A stretch of 54,139 nt of DNA from an uncultured Clostridium sp. Lineage in GTDB: Bacteria; Bacillota; Clostridia; TANB77; CAG-508. The notes under the pieces were generated by a model. The model worked only from the letters and a program-made list of their open reading frames with translations. It had not been told where the DNA came from and did not search any database. Positions 4,750 through 24,936 of the stretch are shown here, piece by piece. Both the position numbers and the translations under genes were made by a program. The DNA lies in the NCBI GenBank assembly GCA_946497905.1, contig CAMMMI010000001.1:1-54139 (forward strand). Reading direction: 5' to 3'. The first letter of the stretch is position 1; each line of letters starts with the position of its first letter.

Positions 4750-5997
4750 ATGAAAAAAATCATATATTTTTCAATAGTAGTATTAATATTGATATTTATA
4801 TTAAGCATATCGAATAATACTTTAGCTAGCGAAAATTTAGAAATAAAAATTAGTAGTTTTGAAATAATAAAAGATGAAAATTTTAAAATATATATTAACA
4901 TAGGAAACATAGAAGTAGCATCATATCTATTAAATATAAACTATGATGATAATAAGGTAGAATATGTAAATGGTCCGGAAAATACTAATAAGCTAGACAA
5001 TAGAATTATTAGTATTTGGTTTGATGAAACAGGAGGAAATAGTCCAAAAATAAATCAAGAGATTGCAGTTTTTGAATTTAAAGCAAAAGAAATAGGAAAT
5101 ATAGATTTTAATATAGAAGGAGAATTTTTTGATAAAAATGGAAATGAAATAAAAATAAATAATCAACACATAAATGCAAAAATAGTAGAAACAAATAATG
5201 AAGTGTTAAAAAATACTCAAATTCAAGGAGAAGATAATAATTCTTTATTGAAAATTATGAGATTAGATAAAGAAGGCATTATACCAGAATTTTCACCAGA
5301 AATTAAGGATTATTATTTTATAGCAGATTCTACAATAAATAATTTAGAAGTAGTTGCAATACCAGAAGCTACAAATGCAAAGGTAAATATAAATGGAAAT
5401 AAAAATTTAAAAAATGGAATAAATAAAATAGAAATAGAAGTAACTTCGAGAGATGGAAACAGCAAAAATATTTATACAATTAATGTTAGTAAAACAGATG
5501 ATATAGAAGCGGCAAATACTAATTTAGAAACATTGGCAATAGAATATGTTACATTAGAACCATTATTTGATACAAACGTGTTGAACTATAAGGCAAGTGT
5601 TTCAAATAGTTTTAATGATCTAAATATATTAGCAGTACCAGAAAATATTAATGCAAAAATAGAAATTAACGGAAATAAAAGTTTGCAAATAGGGGATAAT
5701 TTAGTAACTATAAATGTTATTGCTCCTGATAATTTTACTGAAAAAGTTTATAAAATAATTATACACAGAAGGACAGAAGAAGAGGATAAGATTTTTGAAG
5801 ATGAACAGAATATAAATGTAGAAAAATTAAATAGTATTTTAGAGGAACAAGAAATAAATAATAATAATGATGATATGAATGGTACAAATAATTCGAATGT
5901 TTTATATATAGTTTTTGGTGTAATAGGGGTTTTATGCATTATAGGGATTATAAGTTTAATTGTGTTTAAATTTAGAAAAAAAATCAACAATAATTAG
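4750..5997 (+). CDS. Membrane-anchored cohesin-domain protein with two cadherin-like beta-sandwich repeats
   Basis: Signal peptide and cohesin-like N-terminal module (FKIYINIGNIEVASYLLNINYDDNKVEYV). Two repeats of the LxxLxxxxGxLxPxFxPxxxxY type (LLKIMRLDKEGIIPEFSPEIKDYY; LETLAIEYVTLEPLFDTNVLNYK). C-terminal TM helix plus basic tail, no LPXTG. Confidence 0.7.
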   Translation: MKKIIYFSIVVLILIFILSISNNTLASENLEIKISSFEIIKDENFKIYINIGNIEVASYLLNINYDDNKVEYVNGPENTNKLDNRIISIWFDETGGNSPKINQEIAVFEFKAKEIGNIDFNIEGEFFDKNGNEIKINNQHINAKIVETNNEVLKNTQIQGEDNNSLLKIMRLDKEGIIPEFSPEIKDYYFIADSTINNLEVVAIPEATNAKVNINGNKNLKNGINKIEIEVTSRDGNSKNIYTINVSKTDDIEAANTNLETLAIEYVTLEPLFDTNVLNYKASVSNSFNDLNILAVPENINAKIEINGNKSLQIGDNLVTINVIAPDNFTEKVYKIIIHRRTEEEDKIFEDEQNINVEKLNSILEEQEINNNNDDMNGTNNSNVLYIVFGVIGVLCIIGIISLIVFKFRKKINNN

Positions 5998-6488: not shown

Positions 6489-6528
6489 AATTTTATAAGC
6501 ATATAAATATTTTTTAATTATTTAAAAT

Positions 6529-6553
6529 TAGGAAAGTACAATGTACCTTCCTA
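6529..6553 (-). terminator. Terminator of the leftward IME operon
   Basis: On the minus strand: aggaaggtac-att-gtactttcct followed by a T-rich tract, 27 nt after the ABC gene stop. Confidence 0.55.
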
Positions 6554-6579
6554 ATCGAAAAAACAGTAGATTAAATGTG

Positions 6580-8403
6580 TTAAATCTCTTTTACTAAATT
6601 AAATTCTCCAGCCTTTGCAAACTGTAAGTTTCTAAATGTGTACTCATTAGCAAGTTTACTTTTGAATCCATCAATGTTTTGGTGAGTTGAAATAATTACA
6701 ATTCGTTTTTTATCCGAGTTAGCATACCTCACAATGTACTCCAAAATTTTTTCTGCATCAGCAGAATCAGATTCCGTCTTATCATCAAGACCTGATGTAC
6801 ATTCATCCAAAACAATAACATCAATTTCATCATCTAACCAGTATAGCATCTTTGCAAGAATAAGTCTCTGTTTCTGTCCATTTGAAAGCGACTGCTCAAA
6901 TTGTTTTTCTTTCATCCATTTCCATACATCAAAGCAATTAGATTTTATTTCACACCACAAATGGAGATTCTCTAAAATCTTTTGCATTTTTGCAAGATCT
7001 GGATTCTCATTACAACAGAACAGCTCTTCAAAAATACTCAAACTACCAAACTTCAACTTTTCATCATAGAACAAAAATCGTGATGTCGAGGGTATCTCTG
7101 TACTCTTTTCCAATCTGATTCTTTCGGTTAACATCTTCATAAATGTCGATTTACCACTACCAGATGGTCCGTACAGAATAACAACCTCTCCGTTATTAAT
7201 GTGTATCTGCTTTTTTGAAATTAATGTGAAAGGTTTATCGTTCTCGGATTCCTCCAAATACTGAATCGAGAATGGATTTATTCTTATATTGTCAACAATT
7301 TTAGGTATAGAAACCTTTGCAGATTCATTATGATACACATCTAAAATTAATGACATATCCTTTTCTTCTTTTTCCAGTATGATTAACCTTTCATTGTGAT
7401 TGTTCAAAGTTTCAGCAATTCTGCTAATCTGTCCTAATGCTGTTTCAACAATCAGAAGTGTTGCAGTAATTTCTGTTATAGTAGCTAAATTGATACTACT
7501 CCACTCGACTCCTAACAGATAGAATATTATAATTCCATACTGACTAAGTGCTTCCATTATTGTTACAAATAATCTCGACAAATTCATCTTCTTGTGGAAC
7601 TTTGTAACATTCTCATTGCTCGCAATAACAGTCTTTTGAAATTTATTGATTCTCATATCCAAGTCATCTTTGACAATTACAGGAACACGAAGTAAATCAT
7701 TTACTATCAAAGACTGTTCGTTGTTATACTCTCTGTGTTTCTTATAATATGCTTCTCTATTCAAACTAATATATGCTGAACTAAAGAAAGAAATAAGCAC
7801 AAATATGAAAATCAGAGGAATAAAAACAACTTGTGAAATAGATGTGTTGGTTATTATGGCTACAGCTAGCATAATTATTACACTAATCATTTCAAATACA
7901 TCAAATGTATGTTGAATTTTCTGTCGCCACAGATTTTGCAAATAGTTCTTAATAGTATTTAACACCGATTCATTGCTCATTACTTTATACAATTTATTTG
8001 ATGTGTTATACTTCAAAACCTTATTTGCTGTCTTGCCGATGATTTGACTACCTCTGAATACAATTTCATCCTCAAAAATGAGTTCAAATTTCTTGTTTTC
8101 AGAGCTTTCAAAAAGATAAAATGCTTCCCTTACAACTTGCTGCCCACGATATAACATAAATAATATGATTCCAAGCAAAATCAACCTGTACTCAATCATC
8201 ATGTTTGTCGCTTTAAGCATAAATGCAAAAACAAGGGCGATTACGGTCATTCCCAGATTCATGAAACCCACTTTAAATCCCATCCGCTTTACACTTTCAG
8301 GAATAATGAGCATCTCATCTGATAAACCATATGGCTTGAAGAACTTAATAATGAGATTTATCACCTCCCGAATTAAATTTTTCAATTTTTCCTGTCCTTT
8401 CAT
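6580..8403 (-). CDS. ABC half-transporter-like protein (N-terminal multi-TM domain fused to an ABC ATPase); IME cargo
   Basis: Several hydrophobic helices in about aa 40-330. Walker A GPSGSGKST, signature LSNGQKQR, Walker B VIVLDECTSGLD, H-loop STHQ. Confidence 0.8.
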   Translation of the reverse strand: MKGQEKLKNLIREVINLIIKFFKPYGLSDEMLIIPESVKRMGFKVGFMNLGMTVIALVFAFMLKATNMMIEYRLILLGIILFMLYRGQQVVREAFYLFESSENKKFELIFEDEIVFRGSQIIGKTANKVLKYNTSNKLYKVMSNESVLNTIKNYLQNLWRQKIQHTFDVFEMISVIIMLAVAIITNTSISQVVFIPLIFIFVLISFFSSAYISLNREAYYKKHREYNNEQSLIVNDLLRVPVIVKDDLDMRINKFQKTVIASNENVTKFHKKMNLSRLFVTIMEALSQYGIIIFYLLGVEWSSINLATITEITATLLIVETALGQISRIAETLNNHNERLIILEKEEKDMSLILDVYHNESAKVSIPKIVDNIRINPFSIQYLEESENDKPFTLISKKQIHINNGEVVILYGPSGSGKSTFMKMLTERIRLEKSTEIPSTSRFLFYDEKLKFGSLSIFEELFCCNENPDLAKMQKILENLHLWCEIKSNCFDVWKWMKEKQFEQSLSNGQKQRLILAKMLYWLDDEIDVIVLDECTSGLDDKTESDSADAEKILEYIVRYANSDKKRIVIISTHQNIDGFKSKLANEYTFRNLQFAKAGEFNLVKEI

Positions 8404-8554
8404 GTGCTTTTCCTCCTTAATTATATGTGATAGAAAAAATTTTTTACAAAGGTATGTACCTCATACTTTTATTATAGCATATTTACATAATATTTTCTAT
8501 AATTATCCAAAAAATACAACAATTGGGTTCATCTCAAAGTCATTATATTTTTAT

Positions 8555-12608: not shown

Positions 12609-12839
12609 ATCCATTTTGGATACTTAATAAGTAAAAAAATAAATCTTATTCATATTTTTATTTTTATAGCATACCTCCTTTCAAATTTATCTGTATCCGT
12701 TTTGGATATTTATATAATAATCCAAAATGGATATATTGTCAATACCTTTTTCAAAATTTTTTAAACTTTCTAAAACTTTTATATAAAAAATATTTAATTT
12801 TCAACGATTATTGACTTTCCAAAATGGATATGATAAAAT
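12609..12839. promoter_or_regulatory. Divergent promoter/operator switch region of the IME
   Basis: Leftward promoter TTGACA(12742-12737)-17-TATTAT(12719-14). Rightward promoter TTGACT(12811-16)-17-TAAAAT(12834-39). Four ATCCAWWWWGGATA-type palindromes at 12609, 12695, 12720 and 12817; the last two fill the promoter spacers. Confidence 0.65.
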
Positions 12840-12869: not shown

Positions 12870-13619
12870 ATGACAAATGGCGAAAGAATAAAGTATTTAA
12901 GAGAAAAAAATGGATTTACTCAAAAAGATATTGCTACAAGATTAGGAGTAGAACCTGCAGCAATATCAAAATATGAATTAGATATGAGAGAGCCAAATAT
13001 AGAAGCAATAAAAAAACTAGCTACAATTTTTAATGTTTCAATAGATTATTTACTTGGAAGAACACCAGATGTTTTTGTAGATGAAACAAATAGAGATACA
13101 CTTGATATATCTGCTATTAAAGACAAATATAACTTTACAAAAAAGAGAATGGATAAAGTAAAAGAAATCTATAAAAATGATACTACACTAAGCACAGCAA
13201 TAAACGAATTATGTTGTGGTGTAGGAAAAACTACTTTTGGACAAACTATAACAAATACAAATATTTCAATGCTAGAAATAGAAAGCATGTTTAATGATTT
13301 TGAAAACAGCAAAGATCCTAAACCACAAATTATAATGAAAGTTAAAAATTTAGAAAATAGTATTATAATTGTTGAGATTGATTCTTTTGATGATGAAGAA
13401 ATGCCACTTGATGCAACTGATAGAATTGCTTTATATACTACAAAATTATCACAAAAATATAATGTGCTTGGTTTAGTAATGACAATTGATAAAGATGAAA
13501 ATTGTAAAATTATAGATGCTATATATCAAAAAAATAAAGATACTTATTATACTCAATTACATTTGCCTAAAACAGTATTAACTGCTGGAGAGTATATTGA
13601 TATAATGAGTAGATTATAG
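12870..13619 (+). CDS. XRE-family HTH regulator with an uncharacterised ~170-aa C-terminal domain
   Basis: GAAGGAG RBS. N-terminus MTNGERIKYLREKNGFTQKDIATRLGVEPAAISKYELDMREPNIEAIKKLATIFNVSIDYLLGR is a typical HTH_3. No motif recognised in the C-terminal part. Confidence 0.8.
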   Translation: MTNGERIKYLREKNGFTQKDIATRLGVEPAAISKYELDMREPNIEAIKKLATIFNVSIDYLLGRTPDVFVDETNRDTLDISAIKDKYNFTKKRMDKVKEIYKNDTTLSTAINELCCGVGKTTFGQTITNTNISMLEIESMFNDFENSKDPKPQIIMKVKNLENSIIIVEIDSFDDEEMPLDATDRIALYTTKLSQKYNVLGLVMTIDKDENCKIIDAIYQKNKDTYYTQLHLPKTVLTAGEYIDIMSRL

Positions 13620-13635
13620 GAAGGAGTAAATCTTA

Positions 13636-15312
13636 ATGGAAGATTCAGAACTTAAACAAATATTATTTTCATTATTAAAAAATGATGAAAATGAGTGTAT
13701 AGAATATAAAGAAGCAAATAATAGTTTTGATTTTGAAAAACTCGGAAAATATTTTTCTGCATTGAGTAATGCTGCTAACTTGGTTGGAAAGCAATATTCA
13801 TGGTTAATCTTTGGAATTAAAGATAAAACTCACGAGTTTGTTAATACTAAATATAGAAACAATGGAAATTTGAATAAGTTAAAAAAAGAAATTACAAAAG
13901 GAACTAACGATGGAATTACTTTTTTGGATATTTTTGAATTATTTGTAGAAGATAATAAAAGAGTAATAATGTTTAAAATACCAGCAGCTATGGGAATTCC
14001 CACAACATGGAGAGGATTTGCTTATGATAGAAATGATGAGGATTTAGTCCCTTTAAATCAAATGAAATCTGATCAAATTAAGTCAACAATGAATTTCGAT
14101 TGGTCAAGACAGATTATAGAAAGTTTGACAGTAGATGATTTAGACAAAGAAGCCATTTTAAAAGCAAGAGAACAATTTAAAAAGAAAAATGAAGATAAAG
14201 AAATTGCTAAAGAAGTGGATAATATGGATGATATTACATTTCTAAATAAAGCGAAGGTTTTATTAAATGGTAAAGTGACTCGTACAGCTTTACTATTACT
14301 TGGAAAAGAAGAAAATAGTTATTTGTTTGAAGATTTTATTCCGCAAATAACGTGGAAATTACAAGAGAATGGAGAAATTTTAGATTATGAACACTTTACA
14401 ATTCCATTTTTAGTAAATGTTGAAAAAGCAAAAAATAAAATTAGAAATTTAAGATATAGATATATGGTTAATGAAATAACATTATTTCCCAACGAAGTGG
14501 ATCAATATGATAATTATACTTTAAGAGAGTTATTAAACAATGCAATCGCTCATCAAGATTACAGAAAACATGGTAGAATAAATATATTAGAAATGAAAGA
14601 AAAATTAATTTTTATAAATGAAGGAAGTTTTATTCCTCAAAATGTTGACAAATTTTTACTAGATGAAAGTTATGTTCCTCCATATTATAGAAATCCGTTT
14701 TTAGCAAATGCTATGGTTAATTTAAATATGATTGATACTGCTGGAAGTGGCATAAGAAGAGTATTTAATAATCAAAAGCAAAAATTCTTTCCTATGCCAG
14801 ACTATGATTTATCAGTAGAGGGAAGAGTAAAAGTAACTTTGTATGGAAAAATATTAGATGAAAAATATACAAAAATGCTTTTTGAAAAAACTGATTTAGA
14901 TATTGGTATTGTAATGCTTTTAGATAGAGTTCAAAAAGGAATACATATAGCAAAGCAGGAGTCTGATTTATTAAAAAAAGAAAAATTAGTAGAAGGAAGA
15001 TATCCAAACTTATATATTTCTAAAGAAATTTCAGAAATAACAGATGAAAAAGCAAAATATATAAAAAATCGTGGATTAAGTAATGATATGTATAAACAAA
15101 TGATAGTAGAATTGATAAAGACATATGGTAAAGCAACAAGAAATGAAATAAATGATTTGTTACTTGATAAAATGCCAGAATTCTTATCTGAAGATAAGAA
15201 AAAAAGAAGGATTAAATATTTATTAATTGAATGTTTGCAAAATAAAGAGAAAAAAATAAAAAATATTGGAAGTCGTACAAATTCTATATGGGTTTTAAAT
15301 AAAGATGATTAA
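13636..15312 (+). CDS. AlbA_2 (Schlafen-like) + HATPase_c_4 / RecG-C-like putative DNA-binding protein
   Basis: N-terminus ECIEYKEANNSF...ALSNAANLVGKQYSWLIFGIKD (AlbA_2 pattern). Central LRELLNNAIAHQDYRKHGRINILEMKEKLIFINEGSF (HATPase_c_4 pattern). GGAGTAA RBS 16 nt after the XRE stop. Confidence 0.7.
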   Translation: MEDSELKQILFSLLKNDENECIEYKEANNSFDFEKLGKYFSALSNAANLVGKQYSWLIFGIKDKTHEFVNTKYRNNGNLNKLKKEITKGTNDGITFLDIFELFVEDNKRVIMFKIPAAMGIPTTWRGFAYDRNDEDLVPLNQMKSDQIKSTMNFDWSRQIIESLTVDDLDKEAILKAREQFKKKNEDKEIAKEVDNMDDITFLNKAKVLLNGKVTRTALLLLGKEENSYLFEDFIPQITWKLQENGEILDYEHFTIPFLVNVEKAKNKIRNLRYRYMVNEITLFPNEVDQYDNYTLRELLNNAIAHQDYRKHGRINILEMKEKLIFINEGSFIPQNVDKFLLDESYVPPYYRNPFLANAMVNLNMIDTAGSGIRRVFNNQKQKFFPMPDYDLSVEGRVKVTLYGKILDEKYTKMLFEKTDLDIGIVMLLDRVQKGIHIAKQESDLLKKEKLVEGRYPNLYISKEISEITDEKAKYIKNRGLSNDMYKQMIVELIKTYGKATRNEINDLLLDKMPEFLSEDKKKRRIKYLLIECLQNKEKKIKNIGSRTNSIWVLNKDD

Positions 15313-15345
15313 ATATTTAAAATTTTCTAATTTTAAAAAATGATT

Positions 15346-15526
15346 GGCCGAAATTCAAAAAAATCCGGCCGAATTCTAAAAATATTCGGCCGAATTCCGG
15401 ACAAAAATCAGCCGAAATTCAAAAAAATCCGGCCGAATTCTAAAAATATTCGGCCGAATTCCGGGCGAATATCGGCCAAAATTCAAAAAAGTCCGGCTGA
15501 ATTCTAAAAATATTCGGCCGAATTCT
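15346..15526. repeat. GC-rich iteron array: 3 x 64-bp units = 9 x (C)GGCCGAA(A)TTC sites
   Basis: Site starts at 15346, 15367, 15388, 15410, 15431, 15452, 15474, 15495 and 15516, giving spacings of 21,21,22,21,21,22,21,21. Confidence 0.8.
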
Positions 15527-15606
15527 AAGCAGAAATTAATAAATTTAAAATTACAAATTTTGTAAAATCATAAATAAGCTTATGATATATTTTTCAATAT
15601 CCACAA

Positions 15607-15798
15607 TTAATTATTTTTAGTAAGTATTTCTTCTTCATATCCATCATCATATACCCAATGTATGTATTTAAAATCTCCACCAATTCTTGTATATTCATTT
15701 CCACCATCAATTGAACATGCCCCACATTTACATTTTTTATAATCGTGAACACTTAAAGATTCAATTATATCATTACATTTTAAGCATCTAATTTTCAT
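15607..15798 (-). CDS. Small Cys-rich zinc-ribbon-like protein (63 aa)
   Basis: GAGGTGG RBS. CxxC (CLKCN) and CKCGAC motifs. Last gene before the att site. Confidence 0.6.
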   Translation of the reverse strand: MKIRCLKCNDIIESLSVHDYKKCKCGACSIDGGNEYTRIGGDFKYIHWVYDDGYEEEILTKNN

Positions 15799-15869: not shown

Positions 15870-15896
15870 CATTCAACTGCATTCAAACTACATTCA
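15870..15896 (+). promoter_or_regulatory. Candidate integrase arm-type sites, P arm (3 direct CATTCA)
   Basis: CATTCA at 15870, 15880 and 15891 (10-11 bp spacing), about 55 bp from the tRNA-end repeat. Confidence 0.45.
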
Positions 15897-16203: not shown

Positions 16204-18027
16204 TTAAATCTCTTTTACTAAATTAAATTCTCCAGCCTTTGCAAACTGTAAGTTTCTAAATGTGTACTCATTAGCAAGTTTACTTTTGAATCCATCAATG
16301 TTTTGGTGAGTTGAAATAATTACAATTCGTTTTTTATCCGAGTTAGCATACCTCACAATGTACTCCAAAATTTTTTCTGCATCAGCAGAATCAGATTCCG
16401 TCTTATCATCAAGACCTGATGTACATTCATCCAAAACAATAACATCAATTTCATCATCTAACCAGTATAGCATCTTTGCAAGAATAAGTCTCTGTTTCTG
16501 TCCATTTGAAAGCGACTGCTCAAATTGTTTTTCTTTCATCCATTTCCATACATCAAAGCAATTAGATTTTATTTCACACCACAAATGGAGATTCTCTAAA
16601 ATCTTTTGCATTTTTGCAAGATCTGGATTCTCATTACAACAGAACAGCTCTTCAAAAATACTCAAACTACCAAACTTCAACTTTTCATCATAGAACAAAA
16701 ATCGTGATGTCGAGGGTATCTCTGTACTCTTTTCCAATCTGATTCTTTCGGTTAACATCTTCATAAATGTCGATTTACCACTACCAGATGGTCCGTACAG
16801 AATAACAACCTCTCCGTTATTAATGTGTATCTGCTTTTTTGAAATTAATGTGAAAGGTTTATCGTTCTCGGATTCCTCCAAATACTGAATCGAGAATGGA
16901 TTTATTCTTATATTGTCAACAATTTTAGGTATAGAAACCTTTGCAGATTCATTATGATACACATCTAAAATTAATGACATATCCTTTTCTTCTTTTTCCA
17001 GTATGATTAACCTTTCATTGTGATTGTTCAAAGTTTCAGCAATTCTGCTAATCTGTCCTAATGCTGTTTCAACAATCAGAAGTGTTGCAGTAATTTCTGT
17101 TATAGTAGCTAAATTGATACTACTCCACTCGACTCCTAACAGATAGAATATTATAATTCCATACTGACTAAGTGCTTCCATTATTGTTACAAATAATCTC
17201 GACAAATTCATCTTCTTGTGGAACTTTGTAACATTCTCATTGCTCGCAATAACAGTCTTTTGAAATTTATTGATTCTCATATCCAAGTCATCTTTGACAA
17301 TTACAGGAACACGAAGTAAATCATTTACTATCAAAGACTGTTCGTTGTTATACTCTCTGTGTTTCTTATAATATGCTTCTCTATTCAAACTAATATATGC
17401 TGAACTAAAGAAAGAAATAAGCACAAATATGAAAATCAGAGGAATAAAAACAACTTGTGAAATAGATGTGTTGGTTATTATGGCTACAGCTAGCATAATT
17501 ATTACACTAATCATTTCAAATACATCAAATGTATGTTGAATTTTCTGTCGCCACAGATTTTGCAAATAGTTCTTAATAGTATTTAACACCGATTCATTGC
17601 TCATTACTTTATACAATTTATTTGATGTGTTATACTTCAAAACCTTATTTGCTGTCTTGCCGATGATTTGACTACCTCTGAATACAATTTCATCCTCAAA
17701 AATGAGTTCAAATTTCTTGTTTTCAGAGCTTTCAAAAAGATAAAATGCTTCCCTTACAACTTGCTGCCCACGATATAACATAAATAATATGATTCCAAGC
17801 AAAATCAACCTGTACTCAATCATCATGTTTGTCGCTTTAAGCATAAATGCAAAAACAAGGGCGATTACGGTCATTCCCAGATTCATGAAACCCACTTTAA
17901 ATCCCATCCGCTTTACACTTTCAGGAATAATGAGCATCTCATCTGATAAACCATATGGCTTGAAGAACTTAATAATGAGATTTATCACCTCCCGAATTAA
18001 ATTTTTCAATTTTTCCTGTCCTTTCAT
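16204..18027 (-). CDS. TMD-fused ABC ATPase, copy 2
   Basis: Translation identical to 6580-8403. Confidence 0.8.
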   Translation of the reverse strand: MKGQEKLKNLIREVINLIIKFFKPYGLSDEMLIIPESVKRMGFKVGFMNLGMTVIALVFAFMLKATNMMIEYRLILLGIILFMLYRGQQVVREAFYLFESSENKKFELIFEDEIVFRGSQIIGKTANKVLKYNTSNKLYKVMSNESVLNTIKNYLQNLWRQKIQHTFDVFEMISVIIMLAVAIITNTSISQVVFIPLIFIFVLISFFSSAYISLNREAYYKKHREYNNEQSLIVNDLLRVPVIVKDDLDMRINKFQKTVIASNENVTKFHKKMNLSRLFVTIMEALSQYGIIIFYLLGVEWSSINLATITEITATLLIVETALGQISRIAETLNNHNERLIILEKEEKDMSLILDVYHNESAKVSIPKIVDNIRINPFSIQYLEESENDKPFTLISKKQIHINNGEVVILYGPSGSGKSTFMKMLTERIRLEKSTEIPSTSRFLFYDEKLKFGSLSIFEELFCCNENPDLAKMQKILENLHLWCEIKSNCFDVWKWMKEKQFEQSLSNGQKQRLILAKMLYWLDDEIDVIVLDECTSGLDDKTESDSADAEKILEYIVRYANSDKKRIVIISTHQNIDGFKSKLANEYTFRNLQFAKAGEFNLVKEI

Positions 18028-22493: not shown

Positions 22494-23243
22494 ATGACAA
22501 ATGGCGAAAGAATAAAGTATTTAAGAGAAAAAAATGGATTTACTCAAAAAGATATTGCTACAAGATTAGGAGTAGAACCTGCAGCAATATCAAAATATGA
22601 ATTAGATATGAGAGAGCCAAATATAGAAGCAATAAAAAAACTAGCTACAATTTTTAATGTTTCAATAGATTATTTACTTGGAAGAACACCAGATGTTTTT
22701 GTAGATGAAACAAATAGAGATACACTTGATATATCTGCTATTAAAGACAAATATAACTTTACAAAAAAGAGAATGGATAAAGTAAAAGAAATCTATAAAA
22801 ATGATACTACACTAAGCACAGCAATAAACGAATTATGTTGTGGTGTAGGAAAAACTACTTTTGGACAAACTATAACAAATACAAATATTTCAATGCTAGA
22901 AATAGAAAGCATGTTTAATGATTTTGAAAACAGCAAAGATCCTAAACCACAAATTATAATGAAAGTTAAAAATTTAGAAAATAGTATTATAATTGTTGAG
23001 ATTGATTCTTTTGATGATGAAGAAATGCCACTTGATGCAACTGATAGAATTGCTTTATATACTACAAAATTATCACAAAAATATAATGTGCTTGGTTTAG
23101 TAATGACAATTGATAAAGATGAAAATTGTAAAATTATAGATGCTATATATCAAAAAAATAAAGATACTTATTATACTCAATTACATTTGCCTAAAACAGT
23201 ATTAACTGCTGGAGAGTATATTGATATAATGAGTAGATTATAG
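22494..23243 (+). CDS. XRE-family regulator with unknown C-terminal domain, copy 2
   Basis: Translation identical to 12870-13619. Confidence 0.8.
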   Translation: MTNGERIKYLREKNGFTQKDIATRLGVEPAAISKYELDMREPNIEAIKKLATIFNVSIDYLLGRTPDVFVDETNRDTLDISAIKDKYNFTKKRMDKVKEIYKNDTTLSTAINELCCGVGKTTFGQTITNTNISMLEIESMFNDFENSKDPKPQIIMKVKNLENSIIIVEIDSFDDEEMPLDATDRIALYTTKLSQKYNVLGLVMTIDKDENCKIIDAIYQKNKDTYYTQLHLPKTVLTAGEYIDIMSRL

Positions 23244-23259
23244 GAAGGAGTAAATCTTA

Positions 23260-24936
23260 ATGGAAGATTCAGAACTTAAACAAATATTATTTTCATTATT
23301 AAAAAATGATGAAAATGAGTGTATAGAATATAAAGAAGCAAATAATAGTTTTGATTTTGAAAAACTCGGAAAATATTTTTCTGCATTGAGTAATGCTGCT
23401 AACTTGGTTGGAAAGCAATATTCATGGTTAATCTTTGGAATTAAAGATAAAACTCACGAGTTTGTTAATACTAAATATAGAAACAATGGAAATTTGAATA
23501 AGTTAAAAAAAGAAATTACAAAAGGAACTAACGATGGAATTACTTTTTTGGATATTTTTGAATTATTTGTAGAAGATAATAAAAGAGTAATAATGTTTAA
23601 AATACCAGCAGCTATGGGAATTCCCACAACATGGAGAGGATTTGCTTATGATAGAAATGATGAGGATTTAGTCCCTTTAAATCAAATGAAATCTGATCAA
23701 ATTAAGTCAACAATGAATTTCGATTGGTCAAGACAGATTATAGAAAGTTTGACAGTAGATGATTTAGACAAAGAAGCCATTTTAAAAGCAAGAGAACAAT
23801 TTAAAAAGAAAAATGAAGATAAAGAAATTGCTAAAGAAGTGGATAATATGGATGATATTACATTTCTAAATAAAGCGAAGGTTTTATTAAATGGTAAAGT
23901 GACTCGTACAGCTTTACTATTACTTGGAAAAGAAGAAAATAGTTATTTGTTTGAAGATTTTATTCCGCAAATAACGTGGAAATTACAAGAGAATGGAGAA
24001 ATTTTAGATTATGAACACTTTACAATTCCATTTTTAGTAAATGTTGAAAAAGCAAAAAATAAAATTAGAAATTTAAGATATAGATATATGGTTAATGAAA
24101 TAACATTATTTCCCAACGAAGTGGATCAATATGATAATTATACTTTAAGAGAGTTATTAAACAATGCAATCGCTCATCAAGATTACAGAAAACATGGTAG
24201 AATAAATATATTAGAAATGAAAGAAAAATTAATTTTTATAAATGAAGGAAGTTTTATTCCTCAAAATGTTGACAAATTTTTACTAGATGAAAGTTATGTT
24301 CCTCCATATTATAGAAATCCGTTTTTAGCAAATGCTATGGTTAATTTAAATATGATTGATACTGCTGGAAGTGGCATAAGAAGAGTATTTAATAATCAAA
24401 AGCAAAAATTCTTTCCTATGCCAGACTATGATTTATCAGTAGAGGGAAGAGTAAAAGTAACTTTGTATGGAAAAATATTAGATGAAAAATATACAAAAAT
24501 GCTTTTTGAAAAAACTGATTTAGATATTGGTATTGTAATGCTTTTAGATAGAGTTCAAAAAGGAATACATATAGCAAAGCAGGAGTCTGATTTATTAAAA
24601 AAAGAAAAATTAGTAGAAGGAAGATATCCAAACTTATATATTTCTAAAGAAATTTCAGAAATAACAGATGAAAAAGCAAAATATATAAAAAATCGTGGAT
24701 TAAGTAATGATATGTATAAACAAATGATAGTAGAATTGATAAAGACATATGGTAAAGCAACAAGAAATGAAATAAATGATTTGTTACTTGATAAAATGCC
24801 AGAATTCTTATCTGAAGATAAGAAAAAAAGAAGGATTAAATATTTATTAATTGAATGTTTGCAAAATAAAGAGAAAAAAATAAAAAATATTGGAAGTCGT
24901 ACAAATTCTATATGGGTTTTAAATAAAGATGATTAA
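23260..24936 (+). CDS. AlbA_2 / HATPase_c_4 protein, copy 2
   Basis: Translation identical to 13636-15312. Confidence 0.7.
   Translation: MEDSELKQILFSLLKNDENECIEYKEANNSFDFEKLGKYFSALSNAANLVGKQYSWLIFGIKDKTHEFVNTKYRNNGNLNKLKKEITKGTNDGITFLDIFELFVEDNKRVIMFKIPAAMGIPTTWRGFAYDRNDEDLVPLNQMKSDQIKSTMNFDWSRQIIESLTVDDLDKEAILKAREQFKKKNEDKEIAKEVDNMDDITFLNKAKVLLNGKVTRTALLLLGKEENSYLFEDFIPQITWKLQENGEILDYEHFTIPFLVNVEKAKNKIRNLRYRYMVNEITLFPNEVDQYDNYTLRELLNNAIAHQDYRKHGRINILEMKEKLIFINEGSFIPQNVDKFLLDESYVPPYYRNPFLANAMVNLNMIDTAGSGIRRVFNNQKQKFFPMPDYDLSVEGRVKVTLYGKILDEKYTKMLFEKTDLDIGIVMLLDRVQKGIHIAKQESDLLKKEKLVEGRYPNLYISKEISEITDEKAKYIKNRGLSNDMYKQMIVELIKTYGKATRNEINDLLLDKMPEFLSEDKKKRRIKYLLIECLQNKEKKIKNIGSRTNSIWVLNKDD

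Follow-up and report, generated by a model that had tools for sequence, protein, structure and literature searches.

Do two adjacent genes in a mobile element of gut Clostridia form a dedicated regulator-effector module, or does the first belong to the element and the second to a cargo that is exchanged between elements? We addressed this question for positions 12870 to 15312 of a 54,139-nucleotide stretch of DNA from an uncultured Clostridium sp. (contig CAMMMI010000001.1), referred to below as the window, which carries a 9,624-bp mobilizable element at tRNA-Pro. The first gene encodes an XRE-type protein with an N-terminal helix-turn-helix (HTH), and the second encodes a protein that combines a Schlafen domain with a GHKL ATPase domain, an architecture named "Schlatpase" in a 2026 preprint (bioRxiv 10.64898/2026.05.29.728809). 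Comparison with sibling elements indicates that the two are not a dedicated pair and are better described as a backbone repressor and swappable cargo. The explanation that we consider probable is that XRE acts as the element's master repressor, that the open reading frame (ORF) occupying the slot behind it is co-transcribed with it, and that the Schlatpase found there acts as a single-gene abortive-infection or anti-phage effector. Since the element is present as two head-to-tail copies, offset by +9624, the pair recurs identically in the second copy:

12870-13619, plus strand: XRE gene, 249 aa (ORF), with a Shine-Dalgarno (SD) sequence, GAAGGAG, upstream
13620-13635, plus strand: 16-nt junction, which holds the SD sequence GAAGGAG of the second gene at 13620-13626; cargo classes diverge directly past the XRE stop codon
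13636-15312, plus strand: gene for the 558-aa Schlafen-GHKL ATPase (Schlatpase), cargo with a variable C-terminal tail (ORF, Pfam, PDB profile match)
22494-24936, plus strand: second copy of the pair (XRE, 22494-23243; Schlatpase, 23260-24936), 100% identical to the first

The initial annotation of this DNA described two genes separated by 16 nt, each with its own SD sequence, the first encoding 249 aa with an HTH_3 domain and the second 558 aa with an AlbA_2-type N terminus and a HATPase_c_4 core. The ORFs and Pfam scans agree with this description exactly, and both domains of the 558-aa protein score above their cutoffs; the basic helical C terminus that was also described could be assigned to no Pfam family (residues 421 to 558). 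Both genes are real, as judged from full-length homologs in many metagenomes and genomes (58 to 96% identity for XRE and 64 to 98% for the 558-aa protein). The family of the 558-aa protein is huge (>7,800 matches in the homolog search), and the XRE family is small, with 185 matches, all in uncultured low-GC gut Clostridia. Across a 290-bp region, the XRE gene faces an 81-aa xis-like gene, a replisome-organizer gene, and the genes for a tyrosine integrase, MobC, and the relaxase.

To compare the two genes across elements, we used 45 loci with a full-length XRE homolog, drawn from metagenome contigs and from prokaryotic genomes scanned at one per species. A dedicated module, in which XRE and the Schlatpase coevolve as regulator or antitoxin and toxin, with the C-terminal domain of XRE sensing or neutralizing its partner, would account for several observations: the tight 16-nt spacing with an SD sequence for each gene, the matches of XRE to antitoxin-type HTH models (in the HTH region only), the same pairing in three sibling loci (L012, L028, and L035), and the persistence of promoter, XRE, and cargo together in decayed remnants. 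Against it, an XRE of this type (identity, up to 96%) is followed elsewhere by a Fic gene, either of two other Schlatpase types, a PDC-M59A gene with a Doc gene, or nothing at all. When six cargo classes were placed on a maximum likelihood tree of 33 XRE proteins and compared with shuffled labels, 13 changes were counted versus 13.6 in the shuffles; cargo class is thus random on the tree. The window's Schlatpase type accounts for four rows of the tree and requires four separate gains. Locus L027, which carries Fic, and L028, which carries the Schlatpase, are sisters with 100/98 support, and L034 and L035 are sisters likewise.

The two proteins also disagree in how far they have diverged. At L029, the XRE is 86% identical to that of the window and the Schlatpase 98%; at L035, the values are 75.5% and 92%; and other cargo is found behind XREs that share 96% identity with that of the window. 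Schlatpase orthologs with 66 to 77% identity occur in other settings: some belong to another mobilizable element, where they follow the gene of an unrelated 306-aa protein whose tail resembles a zinc finger; one follows a 180-aa protein; and one, 77% identical (L096), lies by itself among housekeeping genes. The possibility that the upstream neighbors of Schlatpase orthologs (306, 180, and 368 aa) are hidden relatives of XRE was considered and rejected, as neither BLAST nor profile comparison found similarity. The C-terminal domain of XRE, for its part, was never seen outside this repressor family in a profile search that recovered 33 clusters. Counting the window itself, only 6 of the 45 XRE loci carry the window's type of Schlatpase, so that the two genes are not conserved as neighbors, an outcome that the initial annotation itself had named as refuting its proposal, and the joint inheritance and covariation expected of a toxin-antitoxin pair are not seen. 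Because cargo is random on the XRE tree, identities are discordant, and Schlatpase orthologs occur without XRE, the two genes are not a dedicated pair; the comparative data have already largely refuted that explanation, to which we now give very little credence.

What varies among the siblings is the gene that follows the XRE stop codon. It begins 13 to 25 nt past the stop, with a longer gap at L016 and L030, and XRE is found with at least five cargo arrangements besides the window's as well as with none. Across the 45 loci, the slot is occupied by Fic (27 loci), by a Schlatpase of one of three types (12), or by PDC-M59A with Doc (3); it is empty in 2 loci, and 1 is truncated:

27 loci: Fic protein of ~227 aa, matching PADLOC models PDC-S04 (3.6e-63) and SoFic (1.2e-30)
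6 loci (window, L012, L013, L028, L035, and L029, the last a decaying copy): window-type Schlatpase
4 loci: a different, 486-aa Schlafen-ATPase, matching the N-terminal part of the Schlafen-Argonaute model (2.5e-48)
2 loci: a third Schlafen-ATPase, split
3 loci: a 342-aa protein, matching PDC-M59A at 4e-98, plus a Doc-like protein
2 loci (L039 and L041): no cargo; a hairpin and T-run terminator lies directly past the XRE stop codon
Second position, after Fic: a 562-aa AIPR protein, matching AbiU at 1.2e-37
Second position, after Fic: AbiTii proteins of 328 and 222 aa (Pfam AbiTii)
Second position at L019, L021, and L023: genes of 455, 441, and 279 aa, with no significant Pfam or PADLOC family
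13627-15606 of the window, plus strand: right-hand cargo cassette, not shared with siblings carrying other cargo; it comprises the Schlatpase gene and a GC-rich repeat array at 15340-15589

In library scans, the slot genes of the siblings mostly match defense or abortive-infection families. The 455-, 441-, and 279-aa genes, which share the slot with AbiU and AbiTii genes, are candidates for new defense genes. DNA comparison locates the cassette boundaries: homology to L014, L015, L016, L024, and others is lost at 13622-13654, where the XRE gene ends or shortly thereafter, and picks up again at 15607-15631 or at 15875. The terminator placed right after the repressor at L039 and L041 fits a scheme in which cargo ORFs enter ahead of it, just behind the repressor gene; in the window, a search for an intrinsic terminator downstream of the Schlatpase gene found none. 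The Fic and Schlatpase cargos were considered as possible relatives of each other and rejected, as they form separate clusters in an all-against-all BLAST and belong to unrelated Pfam families.

Several loci preserve traces of decay or turnover. In seven decayed remnants (L001 to L006 and L033), the integrase, replication, and mobilization backbone has been lost and the -53 operator (described below), XRE, and the Fic cargo are kept; in the assembly collection, the index lists the XRE of this remnant form (P0148) under 115 blocks. At L029 (10001-12440), the pair itself is decaying: two in-frame stops interrupt the XRE gene, and the Schlatpase, 98% identical, is broken into pieces of 81 and 462 aa. 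At L015, 4.6 kb downstream of XRE, there remains an 85-nt relic (5878-5962) that is 93% identical to part of the window's Schlatpase gene (14917-15001); the XRE of this locus now carries the 486-aa cargo, and the relic may be a trace of an earlier one. The GC-rich repeat array at 15340-15589 accompanies the window-type Schlatpase at L028 and L029, is shorter at L035, and is absent at L012; it was not found in elements with other cargo.

If the slot is variable, the gene on its left border is not. Residues 1 to 67 of XRE form an HTH_3 domain (Pfam, E = 2.2e-16), for which ImmR of ICEBs1 is the best PDB match by sequence (7t8i, E = 3.6e-12) and also the best by fold. The XRE gene is patchy among relatives, being present in 2 of 36 genomes of the same genus and in none of 24 genomes from other families of the order. 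The divergent region upstream of it contains repeated palindromes and promoter-like sites:

12609, 12695, 12720, and 12817 (span, 12609-12829), no strand assigned: four 13-bp palindromes, ATCCA-N3-TGGAT, putative operators in the divergent promoter region (motif count)
12811-12839, plus strand: putative promoter of the XRE-cargo transcript (TTGACT-17-TAAAAT with TG), identified by consensus match alone; the operator at 12817-12829 overlaps it

Eleven matches to ATCCA-N3-TGGAT occur in the window, versus 2.0 expected, and eight of them fall within the two copies of the divergent region. Relative to the XRE start, the operators lie at about -262, -175, -150, and -53, and these positions are the same in siblings of every cargo class and in the cargo-less elements. 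Two of the palindromes overlap the best promoter-like site of each strand. The promoter scan as a whole returned 26 sites, compared with 27.7 in shuffled sequences, and is therefore statistically uninformative in this AT-rich DNA (26% GC). At L019, L022, L026, L029, and L031, only the proximal operator is present, as in the remnants.

Since the backbone and the operator positions recur whatever lies downstream, and the gene is patchy among relatives, XRE is part of the backbone, and the simplest reading makes it the element's master repressor. Repression is deduced from its relatives: like ImmR-type repressors, XRE has a Cro/C1-type HTH, is divergent from the excision and transfer genes, and has repeated predicted operators over both promoters. 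It would bind the four palindromes and thereby cover two back-to-back promoters, one for the xis-like, replication, integrase, and mobilization genes and the other for the repressor itself. An ORF placed directly behind the repressor stop codon would then be co-transcribed with it, at a low and self-limited level, while the element is quiet in the chromosome. Two members of the family, P0230 and P0237, have clearly different N-terminal HTHs on the same C-terminal domain, joined at a conserved DYLLGRT junction; this looks like domain shuffling, which would change operator specificity.

The resemblance to ICEBs1 has its limits. In both, the repressor is divergent from the excision and transfer genes, but the window's XRE is twice as long as ImmR, with an orphan domain, and the integrase lies on the other transcript. 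ICEBs1 has the gene order immR-immA-int, with immA following immR; here, no peptidase domain was detected among the scanned proteins of the element, so that it has no ImmA-type (M78) protease among them, and the immA position is occupied by variable cargo. These facts could be taken to mean that the Schlatpase stands in for ImmA as the sensor or antirepressor that decides excision and transfer: it lies right after the repressor, and a DNA-binding tail is plausible for its class. However, siblings with backbone DNA 91 to 96% identical lack the Schlatpase and have unrelated genes in its place, two elements carry nothing in the slot, and the family, with its >7,800 matches, occurs mostly outside such elements. 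A role in element control is for these reasons most improbable, and the initial suggestion that the Schlatpase flips the switch at 12.6 to 12.8 kb is unlikely to be correct, as near-identical backbones work without it.

The repressor nonetheless has an unusual C-terminal half:

13077-13616, plus strand: orphan C-terminal domain of XRE, residues 70 to 249 (Pfam, profile search, Foldseek)

These ~180 aa match no Pfam family, even at E of ≤10, and scans of 20 such C-terminal domains returned noise only. AlphaFold (AF2) gave a confident model of full-length XRE, as the initial annotation had recommended obtaining (predicted local distance difference test score, 89.9 for the best model and 86.7 to 89.9 over five), with an alpha/beta domain after the HTH; a fold search with this model returned HTH matches only. 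When the C-terminal 180 aa were modeled alone, one of five models was confident, and Foldseek comparison of the domain with PDB and BFVD found no significant neighbor (best E of ~0.02; TM score, 0.3 to 0.5). The weak top matches were mostly nucleases of the PD-(D/E)XK fold (Hjc, splicing endonuclease, VRR-NUC, and UL24). At the positions that are likely equivalent, judged by secondary structure and not by superposition, the conserved residues are P-Q and E-x-D in place of P-D and (D/E)-x-K. The PD-(D/E)XK-like fold, if real, is therefore not that of a standard active nuclease, and assignment as a PD-(D/E)XK nuclease was rejected, as there is neither a significant structural match nor a D...(D/E)xK site; the resemblance serves as a lead only. 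Among 1.84 billion representatives, the profile search found the domain in the 33 clusters noted above; the five full-length matches inspected (250 to 266 aa) all consist of HTH plus this domain, and the other matches are mostly short fragments. The domain is family specific, and its most likely function, and the one favored here, is oligomerization on the four operators, possibly with signal sensing.

A broader scheme can be built on these features, in which the repressor stop codon is a general docking site for the exchange of promoterless defense ORFs and the orphan domain, as a degenerate PD-(D/E)XK-like fold, senses infection or DNA damage. Such a repressor would derepress transfer and at the same time boost the docked defense gene, placing escape and defense on one switch. 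We regard this scheme as improbable.

We return to the reading of XRE as a quiescence repressor with defense cargo. The features of the 558-aa protein are as follows:

13687-14052, plus strand: SLFN_AlbA_2 (PF04326), residues 18 to 139, 46.2 bits (cutoff, 25.3)
13687-13710, plus strand: Ex4ExK motif, E18-E23-K25 (E18-NECI-E23-Y-K25); E-x4-E-Y-K in 12 of 12 aligned orthologs
14575-14841, plus strand: GHKL ATPase domain HATPase_c_4 (PF13749), residues 314 to 402, 42.4 bits (cutoff, 26)
14528-14542, plus strand: putative N-box, E298/N302, just upstream of the PF13749 match

To detect SLFN_AlbA_2, the N-terminal part had to be scanned by itself, as the domain was not listed for the whole protein; homologs carry PF04326. 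E298, N302, G330, G372, and R375 are invariant in the ortholog alignment. A single-sequence search of PDB with the 558-aa protein returned nothing useful, and a profile search found 3lmm (E = 9.5e-9), the only solved relative found by sequence. Among 13 orthologs, the tail (residues 481 to 558, the last 78) is the most variable part, with 56% mean identity versus 77 to 82% for the other domains, as expected of a sensor that faces invaders. By its sequence, then, the protein qualifies as a Schlatpase, with an SLFN_AlbA_2 domain, a GHKL ATPase domain, and a variable tail, and with its RNase and ATPase motifs intact.

Schlafen-GHKL proteins are the commonest prokaryotic Schlafen architecture and were described in 2025-26, so that, as regards Schlafen, the remark in the initial annotation that neither proposed role was documented no longer holds (PMC13056530; bioRxiv 10.64898/2026.05.29.728809). 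In a collection of 5,930 Schlafen proteins from prokaryotes, Perez Taboada et al. found the Ex4(E/D)xK motif to be conserved and fusions of the "HisKinase" (34%) and "HisKinase-HTH" (19%) types to be the commonest; E. coli was protected by two further fusion types, in one case via trigger-dependent tRNA cleavage, and RorSlfn5 cleaves tRNA once triggered (PMC13056530). These HisKinase and HisKinase-HTH classes correspond to the Schlatpase supradomain, that is, the combination of PF04326 and PF13749: in the window protein, the two domains occur in this order with scores above the Pfam cutoffs, the Ex4ExK motif and candidate E/N ATPase residues are present, and size and C-terminal extension are typical of the majority class. 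The protein likewise is encoded on a mobile element, whose siblings fill the slot with defense-type genes. In the Schlafen-Argonaute RzAgo, ATP binding to the GHKL domain (E314/N318) leads to tetramerization and an active Schlafen nuclease (bioRxiv 10.64898/2026.05.29.728809). The E298-x3-N302 spacing equals that of RzAgo E314/N318, an equivalence by motif position and not by alignment or structure.

By analogy with these relatives, the Schlatpase would sense a cue from an invader, probably via its fast-evolving C-terminal tail. ATP-driven oligomerization would pair the Schlafen domains into an active RNase, which would cut tRNA and so stop translation. From its family, its motifs, and its position, we infer with good grounds that the 558-aa protein functions in defense. 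The cargo is almost certainly transcribed from the XRE promoter, and so would stay coupled to the repressor: it is without an obvious promoter of its own and lies as close to the repressor as an operon partner. Of the phage-defense or abortive-infection module under XRE control put forward initially, the defense half is supported in part: the 558-aa gene is element cargo, plausibly for defense, in a defense-rich slot behind the XRE promoter, but the two genes are not a pair.

A number of observations weigh against this reading. The case for transcription of the Schlatpase from the XRE promoter is one of spacing only, and a sequence resembling a promoter (13578-13606; TTAACT-17-TATAAT with TG), located within the 3' end of XRE and 30 nt upstream of the cargo gene, could drive the cargo independently of the repressor, with the proviso that such matches occur at chance frequency. 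Guilt by position is indirect evidence. Phage tests have so far yielded no positive result for the stand-alone Schlafen-GHKL(-HTH) class, and those HisKinase fusions that were assayed in E. coli did not protect it from the phage panel used (PMC13056530, section 6). PADLOC has no model for the 558-aa protein beyond a weak domain-level match (2.7e-7). A C-terminal HTH is said to occur in >90% of Schlatpase tails; residues 421 to 558 of the window protein match no Pfam family even at E of ≤10, and the HTH expected for the class was not detected by sequence. The window protein also differs from the characterized Schlafens in having no fused Argonaute, Ig-like, or DUF262 sensor, which makes those members work.

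Some of these points would suit a function outside defense, as an addiction or stabilization toxin, as a weapon against competing plasmids or elements, or as a DNA- or RNA-binding regulator of host genes. Roughly 30% of the Schlafen genes in prokaryotes lie away from known defense genes, and, as noted, the HisKinase fusions tested did not defend against phages (PMC13056530). Databases call such proteins "transcriptional regulator" or "RecG-like," and the 77%-identical ortholog at L096 sits alone between housekeeping genes. On the other hand, the RNase and ATPase catalytic motifs are intact and conserved, the genes that replace the Schlatpase in siblings match defense-candidate or abortive-infection families, and the tail evolves fastest, as an invader-facing sensor would. 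We judge a non-defense role to be unlikely, though a more serious contender than a dedicated pair or a switch for the element.

A defense effector behind the repressor has precedents. In phage lambda, rexA and rexB are co-transcribed with the repressor gene cI, and other prophages likewise carry repressor-linked defense genes. As in lambda, a defense-type gene here follows the repressor of a quiescent element and would be expressed from the maintenance promoter while the rest is silent; the differences are that the element is a mobilizable island, that its cargo is exchangeable among close relatives, and that the C-terminal domain of its repressor is unrelated. P4-like satellites, phage-inducible chromosomal islands (PICIs), and hotspot 5 of the SXT integrative and conjugative element are defense-cargo hotspots of small mobile elements. 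They resemble the present locus in that conserved backbone genes flank a short slot of interchanging, unrelated defense genes. In the Streptococcus satellite phage Javan328 (MK448433.1), an XRE repressor is followed by a Schlatpase and then by the integrase. Both the hotspots and Javan328 differ in element family and host group from the element studied here, which comes from small-genome, low-GC gut Clostridia and in which the left slot border is the repressor stop codon. The commonest occupant of the same slot in siblings, at 27 of 45 loci, is a Fic protein like the single-gene defense proteins SoFic and PDC-S04, the latter a PADLOC candidate; it is not in this window and is unrelated to the Schlatpase in fold and chemistry.

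The locus is no new kind of system: it comprises a backbone repressor with an orphan domain and a member of an already described family of Schlafen-GHKL ATPases. It illustrates clearly, in a natural setting, how small mobilizable islands of uncultured gut Clostridia carry and shuffle what would be single-gene immune effectors. The repressor gene provides a fixed left border and, on the reading preferred here, the driver of expression, behind which Fic, three kinds of Schlafen-ATPase, and a Doc-containing pair interchange, in many cases followed by AbiU or AbiTii genes. The slot position supports a defense role for stand-alone Schlafen-GHKL proteins, the majority class of bacterial Schlafens, and the orphan domain of the repressor is worth a structure.

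Two further features of the element lie outside the pair. A second variable slot, at the opposite end (6490-8549), holds a gene for an ABC-like protein of 607 aa (6580-8403; copy at 16204-18027) and is a stretch of sequence not shared with sibling elements whose relaxase-to-XRE backbone is 91 to 96% identical; this membrane-anchored ABC ATPase has only generic ATPase matches in PADLOC (mad3, 5.9e-19). At the right edge of the cargo slot, on the minus strand (15607-15798), a small Zn-ribbon DUF7695 gene (E = 9.2e-18) is kept in many sibling elements and in decayed remnants too.

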